This document shows, in pieces, positions 15,137 to 52,097 of a stretch of 64,000 nt of DNA (position 1 is the stretch's first letter; every line of letters begins with the position of its first letter). The position numbers and the translations under genes are program-made. The stretch is from Tricharina praecox. Its lineage: Eukaryota. The notes under the pieces were generated by a model. The model did not search any database. It was given only the letters and a program-made list of their open reading frames with translations, and had not been told where the DNA came from. The stretch covers positions 682,001 through 746,000 of the forward strand of contig NW_026250411.1 in NCBI RefSeq assembly GCF_024521635.1, given 5' to 3'.

Positions 15137-17328
15137 CTACTCTTGAAACGTCTTCTTCAGCTGTTCGAAATGCTGTTTCTGCTCGATTGCCAGCCTGCCA
15201 TCCGTATCCTATCGAGTCGTTAGCAATTTTTGATGTAGCGGGGGAGTAGGTGAGGTGCTCACGGAGATAATCGTTAAGACCAGCGAATAATTGTTCAGCA
15301 GGAACCGCTCCCTCTTCCTAGCATCACTAATACCACTGCTTAGCTTCGTGAGGAACGCTTCAAAATCGCTTCTGAGCCTTCCGAGACTCCGTTGTACAGG
15401 CTCATCATCTCCCGCCTCGGCGCTGAGCGAAAGCAGTCCATGTAGTAAGCTCGCAAAGCGTTGGGTTAGGAAATGTGGCGCGGCACTTTGCTTCGCAGCG
15501 GGACCGGAGACGGCGGCGAGCATGCGAGTATTGTTGATATTTCGGCGGAGCGACTCGCACTGCGCGTCCATCACTAGCTGGAAGCGAGGCCAGAGAAGCA
15601 TGTTGGTTGCGTTAAGGTAACCTTCGGCAGCGGGGATGCGACGCTTTTGCATTTCAAAGAGGGCATATTGGTTTAGCCTTACGCAAAGGAGGATGCCAAG
15701 AGAATCGTAAGTGTTGTCGACGAGGGTCTTGGTGAAGGCTCTTCCAAGGGCGAAGGTTTGCTCGAAGATACTGTTGAACATGTGGGATAACTGGTCGTGC
15801 TTCTTGTGTGAGAAGAATTCGCTGATGAAGGTGTACTCCGCTGAGCAGTTTTCCATCAACGCCGTGTTGAAGTGGCGGAAGTGAAATTCCAGGTAGTGTG
15901 TAGTCCTATCGTCTTCGGCTTGGTAGGCCGCCATAATGGGAGCTGTGCGGTTGCGGAGTATCTCAATTCGTCGACCGATGTTGAATGGATCGTACGTCGC
16001 CGCCACGGACCCCTTAAGACCAGGGATGAGACCACCCTTCCGTGCTGCCTCTTCCTGACCGAGCACGTCATTCTTGTCCATTACGTGCAGCTTCAACTTC
16101 TCAAACGTCTTGTGGTATCGTTGAAAGTGCGTCGAGTAGTACCACCGCATGGTGTTTGTATACGCCTGAGCGATTTCCTCTGCTAGCTGTGCATGATGGT
16201 TCGCCATGAATTGGAATAGCTCTTGGTATCGTAGGAAACCCTGCTGCTGGATGAGCTGCGAATTGGCACCCGGTATCCGCAAAGCCTTGATTCTAGACAC
16301 GAAGAAATCTCGCACTCTTTCAATAGTCTGATGGCCCCAATTAGTCCCCATATCGCATAATACTGCCAGCCAATGGGTAACACCTTATGTGTGATCTTCT
16401 CCAGCTCCGGCTGAACCTCCTGCACAGCTTTCACTTTTGCCGGGTCTTTGGATTCGATTGCCTTGATCCTCCTATCCGTATCATGTAGAGCCTTAACCCA
16501 AGTATCATTAACATCGCCCTCGACCAGCCGCCTAACATCGTTAGGCGGCAGTATAAGATCATCCACGATCGGCCCGAGCATCATTTCAACCGCCTTCCGG
16601 TTTCCAAGTTGCCTGTCGAGACTCATCGACCGGTTCTGAAGAGTCTCAATCTCGCCGCTGACTGTACCTAGATCGACCTGAAACGCGGATAGATACGACT
16701 CGACAGATTTCAGCACCTCGTCGCACGCGGTGATGCTGCGGTGCAGGTCCTGGAATTTATCCTTCTCTTTCTCATCTGCGCCCATCAGCCATCATCCCCA
16801 CAATCGCCGGGAGAGAAACCAACATTCCCCAACCGATTGCTCATTATACTCCCTCTTCCTCCCCACCGCACTCCCAAGCTCCTCCTCTGCCTTCATAACA
16901 AACTCGTCCAGACTCAGCCCAGCAAATGCTACATTCTCCGCATCCCGCGCCTCCGGCATCCACACCTCGCCTTTCCCCGTCACCAGAGGCGCACCGAGTA
17001 TCCCCTCCAGAACATTCAGCGGATTCCTAACTCCCGGCGGCGCCGGGGCCGAAACTGCCTTTCGATACCCCAGTTGGTTCCCCTTGATCGGTAAGGACAC
17101 CGTCGACGCGTTGGGTGTGTTCCCTCCGGCGAGGCTCATCATGCTGGATCTGTGGGACAGCGCGGGCCGCACAGCAGAGGCGTTGGGCCATCGTCCGAGT
17201 GGACTGGGAGCATAGTTTCGGAGCTGTGGGGCGAGGTTGTTGTTGTTTGGGGGTGAAGGTGGACGTGGGGGTGGTTGCTGCTGCTGCTGTGAGAGGGAGG
17301 AGGAGGACCAGTTGCCCGGTCTCCACAT
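15137..17328 (-). CDS. VPS52: GARP complex subunit Vps52/Sac2, 4 exons
   Basis: FQDLHRSITACDEVLKSVESYL, IKALRIPGANSQLIQQ, TMRWYY, LWPRFQLVMD, FLLNNYSLVLTIIS; spliced final exon ends at TAG 15137. Confidence 0.93.
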
Positions 17329-17998: not shown

Positions 17999-18726
17999 CT
18001 AAGCGTTGGAAGACAGGATGTCAGAGTCACCCTGGTCAAGAATGGCCATGGTGGAGCAACGGAAGAGCTTTCCGCAAGCGGTACCGAGCTCAATCTATAT
18101 CCCCAGACAGAACGAGTCAGCAAAGCGGGTTCCCTCCAAAGCAGAAGTTTCTTGCTTCTTCTCAGGGATGAAGACCCGGCTTTCCGATCCACTCAATTGC
18201 CACGGAGCAGGTGCGACAATTGAAAGCTTCTTCTCGGAAACTGGGTCTTCACGGACGAGTCGAGGTAGAATAAAAACATAGGGAGGGGTTCGTACGTTGT
18301 TTCCAGCGAAGTGGTGGACGTTGCACTTGCCCAACATGGAGTAGTACTCGAGCTCAGACTTCCTGAGAGGAGGGGTGTTGCCTAAGAACAACCATCAGCA
18401 CATTAAACCTTCCAATGTATGCTCGCGATAGTGCCTCATCCGGATGGCGCCATCAACTGTAGCGGTCGAGGCGTATGCTCTGGAGGGATTTATCGCGGGT
18501 GGTTTGTAGACGTACCAGCAATGATGACGAGCTTGGCCTTGCCGGAACGGAGAGCCTTCAGGGTCGACTTGTATCCGAGCACGTACTTTCCGGACTTCAT
18601 AACAAGCGCCAAGCGCGAGTTAATGGAGTCGGAGCCGGTCTTCTTGGTCTTCTTGGTGGGGGCTGTCGCATATCGTCAGTACGTGAGAAAAACAGATGGC
18701 GGAACCGGCGGGAGAAGCATACCCAT
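17999..18726 (-). CDS. RPL30: 60S ribosomal protein eL30, 4 exons (ATGG micro-exon; introns about 18663-18722, 18383-18515, 18095-18295)
   Basis: [51 protein letters not shown]. Confidence 0.97.
18131..18251 (-). promoter_or_regulatory. Two tandem kink-turn hairpins in RPL30 intron 3 (putative eL30 autoregulatory element)
   Basis: Hairpin 1 (18251-18169): UUUCCGA-GAA-GAA-GC...GU-GGA-UCGGAAA. Hairpin 2 (18168-18131): UCCC-UGA-GAA-GAAGCA...UGCUUU-GGA-GGGA. Both fit C-stem / 3-nt bulge / tandem G.A / NC-stem. Confidence 0.75.
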
Positions 18727-18883
18727 CTCTGCACTTCCGTTTGGTTGTTGGTTAAAGGGTTGTCGGGGAAGTACTCCGGTAAATTTGGTCGTTATTTGTC
18801 GTTGAAGATTGTCGGCTGTGAACTTGCTAGACTTTTCCTAGGTGAAAGTTCAAGAAGATTTGTGGGTGTTGTGGACCACGCTA

Positions 18884-19029: not shown

Positions 19030-20624
19030 TTATAGCTTGATGCTCATGTCCTTATAATCAAGAGCCAAAGCGACTGCTCCCACCGCTGCGAGATACGCCG
19101 TCAATATGCCCATAGCTTCCACCCGTCCCATATCCAGTGTCTTGATCGTAACGTTCACAAGCCCTGTTAGGAGATTCGCCTATCTCACGTCAGTTACCTT
19201 TTCTAGCAGAAGTGTAAGGGTCACTCACCATTAAAAACACAGCCAATCCATTGCGATTGAATGCATTAAGCACTCTAGGAACATTGAATTTATATGCCTC
19301 CTTCTCATGGACCACTCCGGTCTGCCGCTTCGAAAGGAGTAGTCTCTCAACTAGGTAAAATGCGACCAACTGTGTGGTGTTGAAAGCAGCAACCCAAAGA
19401 ACATATGAAAGATTCGCTAGTCTCCTCGAGACACCGATTCCTAGGCCCTGATATTCATTGCAGCCAATGAATGCAAAAACCCAGAACGCCGCCCAACCCA
19501 ACATCGTCTTCAACATCTTCGACTTCTTGGGATCAACTGCATCGTCTCGGGGGAGTACGTAGGTGCCGGATGACATTCCAGCCAGGAATATAGCAAGATA
19601 GCCGGCAAAGCTGCTTGCACCTTCTTTGTTCATTCCTAGAAGACCGTACTTGTGGCGGTCGCCAACGAGGACATATTCCTCTAGACCTGTCGTCTTCAAA
19701 ACGATCTGGTAACCCACCGCAACGAGCAGAGTGAGGACCGTGTAGATGACTGTTGGGTTCCGGTTCCCGGTGGGGATCGATTGTAACAGCGCAACGAACG
19801 GCGGTAGGAAGCCGAGGGTGAAGAAGAAATTCCAGTGCACTCCGTACTCCGTCACATGCTCGGCGTAATCTACGCCTTTGACCATAGCTAGCCGCACAAA
19901 GCCTAGAACTAAAAGTGGCAAAGAGCTGCGCATAGCAGTCTTCATCCTTCCCAGAAAGGACACCGGACGGCTAGAAGATGCGAGGTATTGCTTGACCACT
20001 GTACGCGCCGACACAAGCCCCGAGGAAAACACGAATGATCCAACACCAAGGTCCATCAATGATGTACCCCAGTTCTCGACCTTTGCGAACCGCCGGGGGA
20101 AGACGTGGAAGTCGACCGCCAGGATGGCAACGCACGTGATGACCATCATGCTACCGCGGTACACAGTGAGGAATGCTTTCTTTGGCAGCAGGTCCTGACT
20201 CTTCTCGCTGCCTTCGACAACATCCTTGGACTTTGAAATGTTGGGCCTTGCAGTCTTGGGTGGTTTCGAAGTGGTGAAGTAGATGAGGACAGCTGGCGAC
20301 AGCACAAGTATGCTCAGGAGCAACGGCTGGGCAGAGTATAGGGTCGTCGCGAGAAGAACGAGAACACAGTTGATGAGGAAATCGATAGCCAATTGTGCCG
20401 GTCCGTAGGAGGTAAAGAGGCACAGACGGGATTGGAGAACCGCGAAGAAGACATACGAGACCTATGAGACCATTGTTAGCATTCCCGAAGCACACTCATT
20501 TGCAGGGGCGTGAATTTACAGGAGCTATGGCAGTGACAAGGTTGATCTCAGTGATTGATCCTCCCGTAAGGTTGGAAACAAAAGCTTCTTTCCGAAGCTT
20601 GTACAGCTCCTCCGGCGTTTTCAT
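19030..20624 (-). CDS. GWT1: GPI inositol acyltransferase, 3 exons
   Basis: KEAFVSNLTGGSI, ILAVDFHVFPRRFAKVENWGTSLMDLGVGSFVFS, EHVTEYGVHWNFFFTL, SRRLANL, NRNGLAVFL. Confidence 0.96.
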
Positions 20625-20841: not shown

Positions 20842-22431
20842 ATGGCAGAACCAGGAGTCAATGGAGATGTTCCAGTCGTTAATGTCTTCAGCATGAATTG
20901 CTGGGGAGTAAGTTTAAGCGATTCTCACTTGGAAGCTTCCGCTGACAATGACGACAGCTCAAGTACATTGCTTTACACCGCGTCGCCCGTCTCAACGAGA
21001 TATCGCTTCGAATAGCTCGTGCGTCGCCATCCCACGATATCGTCGCGTTGCAAGAATTCTGGGTCTACGCCGATTACCTTAATCTGCGCCAGAAGACCAA
21101 GCACATCCTCCCCTACGGAAAGTTCTACTTCTCTGGTTCAATCGGGGGCGGTCTGGTCATCTTATCCAAATGGCCGATCGAGCAGAGCAGCATGTTCCGG
21201 TACCCCCTCAATGGGCGACCTACTGCGTTTTTCCGAGGTGATTTCTACGTGGGGAAGGGTGTGGCCTGCGCTGCGATTCGGCATCCGAGTGGGCGGACTA
21301 TTGAGGTCTTCAACACACACGTACGATAACTCTCGTCACACATAACTAGCTGTTGCTAACGCGTCCTGGTAGTTGCACGCTCCATACGAGGAGAAGGACA
21401 CATACCTCTGCCACCGCACCGCGCAAGCCTGGGAAATCGCCAAGCTCCTACGGGGTGCAGTTCAGAAGGGCAATGTAGCCATCGGAGTAGGCGACTTCAA
21501 CATGATCCCGTCGTCACTCGCACACCGCCTCATCGCCACCCATGGAATGGTATCTGACAGTTGGCTTTCGGCGTACCCCACAACGCCTGACATTCACCCC
21601 CCGGGTGCGAATGCTAAGTTCAATATCGAGATCATGGGAGCGACATGTGACAGTGTTCTCAACACCTGGAGGATGCCGGGGCTAAAGTTGCCCCCATCAG
21701 ACACTGTTGACCCGCGCGGTAAACGTTTGGACTACGTCTTCCATTCACCGGCCAATTCTTCTATACGCAGCGTAAAGGTCGGCATGATTGAACCTATGGA
21801 TATGCCATCACAAACTGGGGGCAAGGGTGGAGCCGGGAGAAACTGCAGTCTCTCGGACCACTTCTCAGTAGAAGTGCAGCTAGCTCTCGCGCCGAATTAC
21901 GAGCAGCAACGCGAACTGGCCATGGCAAGGAACCCGAATCCTACCTCTAACGAATCACTCATAGACATCGCCGGCTCTGCACGAGCACATGAGGCCGAGA
22001 TGCCGCATCAAGCTGGTGAGGTATCTGGCGAGAAATACTTGCCGATGGACATCATCGACAAAATATTCGCTGTGCAGAGAGAGTACACGGCTCGCGAGGT
22101 GAAGGAGAAGTTTTGGCGCATTGCCCATTTCTGGGCTTCGATACCCGTGTTGATCCTTTTGCATGTGGCTATATGGTGGAGTCCGCATAATGGCGTGTCG
22201 TTCTTGATCATGCTCCTCGGATGGGTGGTTGCGGTCACCGGTGTTATGGATGGTTTGATCGGCTTTATCTTCACTGGCAGTGGTATGTATTCCCTTTCAG
22301 CTGTTTTGGAACAAGCTAATCGATGTCCAGAGCTGCGAGCACTCACGGAGTTTGCAGAAGAAATGAGCATGTACCGGCACCTTGCAGAGATGTCTAGCGA
22401 CAAGAACGACGTAGAAGCTGGTAAAGATTGA
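20842..22431 (+). CDS. ISC1: Inositol phosphosphingolipid phospholipase C (neutral sphingomyelinase family), multi-exon
   Basis: MNCWGLKY, IVALQEFW, NGRPTAFFRGDFYVGKGVA, NTHLHAPY, GDFN, RLDY, SDH; two C-terminal TM helices. Confidence 0.95.
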
Positions 22432-51625: not shown

Positions 51626-51978
51626 CATTCCGGTTTGGCATCAGATGTTCGGGTTCGCTGGGTAATGTGCATTGTATCTCACTCGGTTATTCGACTTTAG
51701 CCAATGCTGAAATTTGGTGATATCCTCTTTTGGTGATAACTCTTGGTGATGTTCTCTTCCCCTGCCATTCTCTTTAGCTACTGGGGATCGATTTTTATAC
51801 GAGAACCCAGCTCAGTCCAGTATATTTGCAAAATATAACAAAAGTTGAAAATGGACGCGGAAAAGCAGCAATAACCGTCACAAACACTGAGGAACGTCGT
51901 CCCAACCCGGATAGAAAGTACAATACAATGAGAGTGTGACAGACGGAAGCTGAGGGGAAAAGAAATCAAAGGTGAAAA

Positions 51979-52097
51979 AACTACGGTACCAGGGATTCCC
52001 GCATGGTCACCCACTGCAGTACTAACCTGGCGATACCATGCTTAACTAGGGCTGAGCGGACGGGAAGCCGTGTGTTCATGGTTCTATGACCGTAGCT
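51979..52097 (-). rRNA. Dispersed 5S rRNA gene
   Basis: 119 nt AGCTACGGTCATAG..CTTCCCGTCCGCTCAGCC..AGTTAAGC..GTTAGTACT..TGGGTGACC..GGGAATCC..CCGTAGTT; terminal helix pairs; T6 Pol III terminator; TATA-like box about 25 nt upstream. Confidence 0.95.

Follow-up and report, generated by a model that had tools for sequence, protein, structure and literature searches.

A kink-turn beside the branch site in the last intron of RPL30 of Tricharina praecox and related fungi, a candidate element for splicing feedback by eL30

The gene for ribosomal protein eL30 (RPL30) lies on a 64,000-nucleotide (nt) stretch of Tricharina praecox DNA (assembly GCF_024521635.1, contig NW_026250411.1, positions 682,001 to 746,000 of the forward strand; hereafter the window), and its last intron, intron 3, holds two hairpins with the features of a kink-turn (k-turn). 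The question raised by this locus is whether eL30, through such a structure, controls the splicing of its own message. A preliminary description made from the letters of the window had proposed a duplicated and possibly cooperative eL30 sensor beside the branch point. The comparisons reported here indicate that the branch-proximal k-turn is real, lineage-wide and covarying in the RPL30 last intron, and that the second k-turn is real yet optional. Surplus eL30 probably binds the intronic k-turn and impairs loading of U2, giving negative feedback on splicing.

The 121 nt from 18251 to 18131 folded as two abutting hairpins, as first described, with an energy of -50.1 kcal/mol (z -3.84; 1 of 200 shuffles equal or better). 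This stability was due to hairpin 1 (z -4.42), hairpin 2 alone being marginal (z -1.68; 13 of 200 shuffles equal or better). Both hairpins show the standard k-turn sequence, in which G.A and A.G pairs come directly after a 3-nt bulge (Table 1). The predicted branch adenosine is 15 nt downstream of the third pair of the canonical (C) helix of hairpin 2, and the gap between this hairpin and GCUGAC is 9 nt, close to the 10 nt originally given. The long stems attributed to hairpin 1 were also found, although the basal stem, put at about 18 base pairs (bp), has 17 pairs with a single A.C mismatch and a single bulged G; in the fold of lowest energy, the G.A pairs of this k-turn are separated from the 11-bp apical stem by two pairs and a UU bulge only. 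The scan of Rfam that had been suggested gave nothing over the RPL30 gene at the gathering score, the four weak E-value matches being far below the cut-offs. A half-motif pattern matched at three places genome-wide, with C helix and bulge in the RPL30 match only, and a covariance model scored the element at 51.6 bits as opposed to 11.3 bits for the next best match, so that uniqueness in the genome refers to the pattern search together with the model search of the window.

Relatives were collected from metagenome contigs, which were scanned for the conserved first part of exon 4 preceded by an acceptor site. With five chance matches in non-RPL30 DNA and one incomplete locus excluded from the at least 112 loci obtained, 106 loci plus the window provided 107 introns, 89 of them distinct, and all counts given below are among the matches listed. 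Judged by protein resemblance, these relatives appear to be filamentous ascomycetes of several lineages; the median pairwise identity of their flanking coding DNA was 77%. The proximal k-turn was present in 82 of 89 distinct introns by a strict descriptor and in 84 by a relaxed one, the corresponding values for 100 dinucleotide shuffles being 1.5 and 4.3. The distance from its base to the predicted branch adenosine was 10–20 nt in all 84 (8–30 nt was allowed by the search), in carrier introns that ranged from 73 to 242 nt. Alignment of the orthologous introns, one of the checks proposed at the outset, showed conserved GA cores: among 79 distinct hairpin sequences, 96.7% of cells were paired, as opposed to 19–54% in slid-alignment controls, and two-sided changes occurred at 8 of 10 pairs, a result as high being seen in none of 500 shuffles. 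The alignment rows were picked by the descriptor, which makes the inner pairs and the invariant G and A columns true by construction; the three outer pairs, free of the descriptor, had 29, 26 and 13 two-sided changes, and RNAalifold, unprompted, yielded the same structure. In one relative (L030), exon 3 was split by an extra intron nine bases ahead of the k-turn intron.

The likely ligand is suggested by the third base of the bulge, which the descriptor had left free. This base was A in 45 and C in 39 of the 84 proximal k-turns and never U or G; it was C in 19 and A in 14 of 33 k-turns found at the 5' end of RPL30 genes (see below), and C in 32, A in 9, U in 5 and G in 1 of the 47 upstream k-turns, about four of which were expected by chance. 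On a weakly resolved tree it switched between A and C approximately ten times. Snu13/15.5K and L7Ae strongly favour U in the pocket for this base whereas yeast L30 favours C or A (PMC1874613; this and the other published work cited here was available in part, and statements about it refer to those parts). Thus eL30, as first supposed, is the likeliest ligand of the intronic k-turn, the strongest basis for this, still an indirect one, being the A or C at the third position and the host gene. The 3b.3n pair was A.G in 72, U.G in 11 and G.G in 1 of the 84 proximal k-turns and U.G in all 33 of the 5' k-turns; it is U.G in the yeast L30e site (PMC5061560). No clean k-turn for comparison was identified at the organism's own 28S rRNA site for eL30 (helix 58 according to PMC3706390).

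The proposed sequence of events starts from the comparative observation that the intron appears to keep a standard k-turn with its base 10–20 nt before the branch adenosine. U2 proteins touch the stretch of intron immediately upstream of the branch site. By the published specificity rule, eL30 outside the ribosome would bind this k-turn, and binding would lock a marginally stable hairpin beside the branch site and so hinder loading of the U2 small nuclear ribonucleoprotein. The C helix (3–4 bp) was paired with a probability of at least 0.5 in 28 of 84 naked introns and of 0.01 in the window, in an energy model without k-turn tertiary contacts, and this low predicted pairing would leave room for capture by protein. 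Normal eL30 could not be made from RNA that retained the intron, which presumably would be degraded. Thus, of the 89 introns, 74 contain a stop that would be read on retention, 13 would shift the frame and 2 would insert 48 residues. The last intron of the latter two genes (L087 and L090; 144 nt) is in frame and stop-free. In the window, retention reads through 66 codons up to the acceptor UAG, as the preliminary description had stated, but this in-frame reading is a local accident, intron length being a multiple of three in only 28 of the 89. Precedents come from budding yeast, where bound L30 allows U1 and blocks U2 (PMC11585973), and from fission yeast, where the rpl30-1 product represses rpl30-2 splicing (PMC4695336). 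A second, upstream k-turn would raise occupancy or sharpen the response and would be dispensable, while a 5' k-turn over the AUG would act as a separate arm on translation and, where intron 1 exists, on intron 1 splicing.

Several observations weigh against control of splicing by eL30 in this way. The set was limited to genes with an intron at this position, and its rows are related, so that counts are not independent events. Five of the 89 introns had no descriptor match: two were short introns (60–73 nt) without a k-turn (L008, L073), one had none (L098), one was degenerate (L038) and one had a single C-helix mismatch yet scored 32.8 bits with the covariance model (L061). The k-turn is only near the branch site and overlaps neither this nor a splice site. 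All 84 proximal k-turns have G at 3n, 72 of them in an A.G pair, and by published rules these should fold in Mg2+ when no protein is present, whereas a regulatory k-turn, it has been argued, should be unfolded until protein is bound (PMC6298567); the U.G pair of the yeast L30e site likewise has G at 3n. Finally, a stop in the last intron is followed by only approximately 200 nt before the RNA contigs end and would probably be a weak trigger for nonsense-mediated decay.

Some of these points lend weight to explanations other than a steric block of U2 by eL30. The absence of any splice signal covered by the k-turn would fit an eL30-bound intron whose output lies elsewhere, in recruitment of nuclear decay, retention of the RNA in the nucleus or buffering of free eL30 by the excised lariat, and the evidence for eL30 specificity from the third bulge base serves this explanation equally; moreover, rpl30-2 of fission yeast is a target of Mmi1 and the exosome (PMC4695336). 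It is nonetheless unlikely, since the narrow 10–20 nt spacing in 84 of 84 introns, despite intron lengths of 73 to 242 nt, fits an effect on the branch site better than a decay signal that is free of position. Folding by ions alone, with the k-turns acting as structure in intron splicing rather than as an eL30 sensor, is distinctly unlikely: it accords with the published ion-folding rules for the proximal k-turns and for the upstream ones (G at 3n or C at 3b in 43 of 47), and "zipper" enhancers are known in yeast ribosomal-protein introns (PMC12311795), but it leaves unexplained a third bulge base that is A or C only and is shared with the 5' k-turn. The six introns of 73–86 nt contain little beyond the proximal k-turn, and introns of 60–73 nt without a k-turn exist, which indicates that the intron is long because of the element and not the reverse. 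Pairing of the GGAGGG strand with the intron's 5' end was no better than in shuffles (mean z -0.17; 5% of 77 introns at p≤0.05). A zipper switch between this strand and a C/U tract after the 5' splice site was the lowest-energy fold of the window intron by 3 kcal/mol and was rejected as it was not favoured across the 77 introns; the fold probably reflects only the marginality of hairpin 2.

A different member of the L7Ae family, which shares one fold, might instead bind a snoRNA-like (small nucleolar RNA) or kink-loop intronic RNA that modulates splicing of its host, Snu13/15.5K and eL8 being the candidates. Intronic kink-loop RNAs bound by 15.5K are reported to suppress host intron excision in mammals (bioRxiv 10.64898/2026.08.03.742641), and in the window intron a sequence one mismatch away from box C lies at 18252, while CUGA occurs at 18165 and 18120. 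This explanation is nevertheless very improbable. A perfect box C was found in none of the 89 introns and one-mismatch boxes were at chance (19 as opposed to 22.9 in shuffles), an H box was present in 2 of 47 linkers and ACA just after hairpin 2 in 19 of 84 introns, with neither in the window, U never occupied the third bulge position of the 84 proximal k-turns, and no Rfam snoRNA match was obtained. An H/ACA or box C/D snoRNA or a kink-loop RNA, including the excised Snu13-bound snoRNA named in advance as an alternative, was rejected on these grounds. Next to no weight is given to an origin as neutral hairpins, or as what is left of a small inverted-repeat element. The long, near-perfect stems of hairpin 1, seen in close relatives only, are what such an origin would leave, but only one copy of hairpin 1 was found in the genome, which led to rejection of a mobile element, and hairpin 2 has compensatory changes among genes at the flanking identity given above; thus neutrality is refuted for hairpin 2 and may hold for the long stems of hairpin 1.

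The emphasis of the preliminary description on a duplicated, cooperative sensor was not borne out, as only the proximal k-turn is near-universal. An upstream k-turn was noted in 40 of 82 carriers by the strict descriptor and in 47 of 84 by the relaxed one (1.7 and 4.3 in shuffles), the latter value being a floor since further introns showed degenerate versions by eye. Three introns (L024, L036 and L048) had two upstream copies, hence three k-turns in total, and the genes concerned were without a 5' k-turn. Within the supported clade that includes the window (13 rows), the upstream k-turn was present in 7 rows and absent from 6, on a tree of 82 rows and 129 columns that had many unresolved forks and did not include L030, L035 or the five introns lacking the proximal k-turn. 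It was missing in close relatives such as L067, L002 and L013; the hairpin 1 core was retained in L108 with a G-C to C-G change, while the equally close L067 had lost the 3' strand of the k-turn by deletion. Obligatory cooperativity is therefore unsupported, and cooperativity may occur without being required. Upstream hairpins of five introns (L030, L045, L028, L055 and L087) were k-turn-like, the G of the second G.A pair seemingly being replaced as judged by eye, and may be non-standard or decayed k-turns.

A further k-turn, of the yeast type, was found to span the start codon of the window gene together with its first 5' splice site (Table 1) and had escaped the preliminary description. The claim that the element is placed differently from that of yeast is thus correct for the intronic k-turn and incomplete for the gene: the yeast arrangement, in which exon 1 with its AUG and the 5' splice site together make up the k-turn, is absent from intron 3 and present at 18781–18720. 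Of the 55 distinct loci whose upstream DNA reached 600 nt or more, 33 had a 5' k-turn. The start codon had been mis-picked in three of the 22 negatives, and no k-turn overlapping the AUG appeared in these three on re-check; other 5' k-turn matches were seen in 2 of 23 re-checked loci, 0.4 being expected. In only 6 of these 33 genes does an intron follow ATG-G directly, so that in most relatives the 5' k-turn overlies no splice site at this place. The intronic element was kept by each of the 22 genes that lack the 5' one, and the 5' element by each of the 4 that lack the intronic one. That none of 55 lacks both is suggestive and not significant (chance approximately 0.13, given 4 without the intronic element and 60% with the 5' element). 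In L009, a gene without the yeast-type k-turn, the 5' untranslated region (UTR) contained a k-turn built like the intronic ones, with AAC as the bulge of its 5' strand, that did not overlap the AUG, possibly a further relocation.

The gene model that underlies these results agreed with RNA contigs from runs X1 and X2, which matched the exons without mismatch and joined exactly over the three introns, with skips of 60, 134 and 201, as had been inferred from the sequence; an X1 contig extended to 18831 and spanned the yeast-type k-turn. Contigs from runs X3 and X4 matched exons of relatives only. These data are assembled contigs, from which rare forms are dropped, and intron 3 was covered by no contig of the four runs. 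Exons 2 and 4 scored above the curated cut-off of Pfam Ribosomal_L7Ae, exon 3 alone scoring below it, and the named PDB matches of exon 2 were eL30. Exon 4 was closest to PDB chains 7r81_e1 and 7olc_Lc, which we take to be from Neurospora crassa and Chaetomium thermophilum, respectively, and which would place the organism among the filamentous ascomycetes. Phe90, encoded by exon 4, lies opposite human Y89 and yeast F85, the main RNA contact, in an alignment made by eye. A search with exon 2 indicated a single copy of RPL30 in the genome. The length of intron 3 is unusual, as was first remarked against introns of about 50–70 nt: in a crude motif survey of the window, intron-like stretches exceeded shuffles only at 40–79 nt (25 as opposed to about 9.5).

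Intron 2 is likewise long, and its counterpart was 133 nt in L067 and 56–61 nt in four other loci. A candidate k-turn over its branch site (approximately 18449–18395) was rejected, the folding z being 0.23 and the structure being absent from all five recovered orthologous introns, including that of the closest relative, L067. The neighbouring genes provide an ordinary housekeeping context, and a dispersed 5S rRNA gene (101.7 bits) was also noted in the window.

Table 1. Positions of RPL30, its candidate regulatory elements and other features, in coordinates of the window
Feature	Position	Strand	Remarks
RPL30 (eL30) gene	17999..18726	minus	four coding exons, 110-residue product
RPL30 coding exons	18726-18723, 18662-18516, 18381-18296, 18094-17999	minus	introns 1, 2 and 3 of 60, 134 and 201 nt
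Exon 4	17999..18094	minus	residues 80-110; bears Phe90; missing if intron 3 is retained
Intron 2	18515-18382	minus	134 nt
Intron 3	18095..18295	minus	201 nt, GUACGA...UAG; removed in RNA contigs from runs X1 and X2
Intron 3 3' splice site, UAG	18095..18097	minus	first in-frame stop upon retention
Predicted branch site, GCUGAC	18116..18121	minus	branch A 18117; from consensus
Hairpin 2, branch-point-proximal k-turn	18131..18168	minus	conserved in orthologous introns
Hairpin 2 core	18164-18162 (bulge UGA); 18161-18159 (GAA) and 18137-18135 (GGA)	minus	G.A/A.G/A.G from GAA and GGA; C helix UCCC/GGGA; NC helix GAAGCA/UGCUUU
Hairpin 1, optional second k-turn	18169..18251	minus	long basal and apical stems lineage-specific
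Hairpin 1 core	18233-18231 (bulge GAA); 18230-18228 (GAA) and 18190-18188 (GGA)	minus	
Yeast-type k-turn over start codon and first 5' splice site	18720..18781	minus	
Yeast-type k-turn core	18777-18775 (GGA); 18730-18728 (bulge AGA); 18727-18725 (G-A-U)	minus	G-A-U contains A and U of AUG
5' UTR k-turn of L009	about 77-57 nt ahead of where the scanned 5' segment ends		in a relative
GWT1	19190-20392	minus	
Vps52	15209-17328	minus	
Exo_endo_phos family gene	21373-22431	plus	
5S rRNA gene	51978-52097	minus	

Autoregulation by L30 as a principle is known from S. cerevisiae RPL30 (formerly L32), whose k-turn was described by Eng and Warner (1991), Vilardell and Warner (1994), Chao and Williamson (2004) and Macias et al. 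(2008), as cited in PMC11585973, PMC6298567 and PMC3706390. The yeast and intronic elements share the gene and protein family, a standard k-turn, A or C as third bulge base and a proposed block of U2 recruitment, and an element of the yeast type is found in the window gene as well. They differ in that the present k-turn is wholly intronic, in the last intron, 10–20 nt before the branch adenosine and without cover of a splice site or AUG; its bulge is on the 5' strand, the apical loop is on the non-canonical (NC) helix and the structure is often doubled, and 3b.3n is mostly A.G (72 of 84) as opposed to U.G. Other likenesses are more distant. Yeast RPL7B, RPL18B, RPS22B and RPL22 have conserved intronic structures that are bound by their own ribosomal proteins with repression of splicing (PMC12311795, PMC13232506), but these involve other proteins and folds and are not k-turns, and RPL7B works by displacement of a zipper enhancer, for which no specific support was found in RPL30 introns. 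In the archaeal l7ae 5'-UTR switch, a ribosomal protein of the L7Ae family captures a weak k-turn hairpin on the message that encodes it (PMC6298567); this switch acts on translation initiation and its k-turns, unlike what is predicted for those of RPL30, do not fold in ions alone. The mammalian kink-loop RNAs mentioned above are also kinked intronic RNAs that bind an L7Ae-family protein with suppressed host intron excision, but they have terminal C/D boxes, which are not conserved in RPL30 introns, and are processed as small RNAs.

The suspicion that a survey of fungal structured RNAs might already list an rpl30 motif proved correct, in that Li and Breaker (2017; PMC5640933) report one from 26 species as a single hairpin, without a k-turn label in the text available; the match to the intronic element is less clear, the motif being described mostly ("most", not all) in 5' UTRs, as opposed to a spliced intron of the coding region. 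Its location agrees with that of the 5' k-turn, which 33 of 55 genes in the present set have, and from the description their motif most likely corresponds to the 5' element. Appreciable doubt arises because the species listed include the Sordariomycetes Chaetomium, Gibberella, Magnaporthe and Myceliophthora (PMC5640933), while loci that encode a DQQ C-terminus like that of 7r81 and 7olc lacked an AUG-overlapping k-turn in all 4 cases with enough upstream DNA and had the intronic k-turn in 8 of 8. It is possible, if rather doubtful, that their alignment contains the intronic element. No publication on an intronic RPL30 k-turn in filamentous fungi was found in literature searches, most subscription papers being outside their reach, and PMC8216456 did not mention rpl30, L30 or k-turn. 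The intronic, branch-proximal placement would thus be new unless it is within the alignment of Li and Breaker, with which it may overlap.

We tentatively suggest, without regarding it as the likelier outcome, that the L30 loop of filamentous ascomycetes is modular and rewired, with a 5' k-turn that lies mostly on an AUG without a neighbouring intron and acts on translation only, and a splicing arm of one to three last-intron k-turns for eL30 that act on branch-site recognition from a fixed 10–20 nt, and that either arm, but not both, can be lost. If so, the last intron of RPL30 would contain an undescribed, lineage-wide and tunable branch-point switch gated by protein, and a minimal model for blocking of U2 loading by an L7Ae-family protein. 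The block of U2 by yeast L30 is indirect, the k-turn lying far away at the 5' splice site; with this protein and fold next to the branch point instead, a steric model could be put to a direct test. Such a loop would carry the textbook yeast circuit into filamentous fungi in a different architecture and would show that one gene can bear three or more sites for its own product, and a portable splicing gate of 40 nt, worked by a k-turn binder that the cell makes anyway, could be used for control in industrial fungi.
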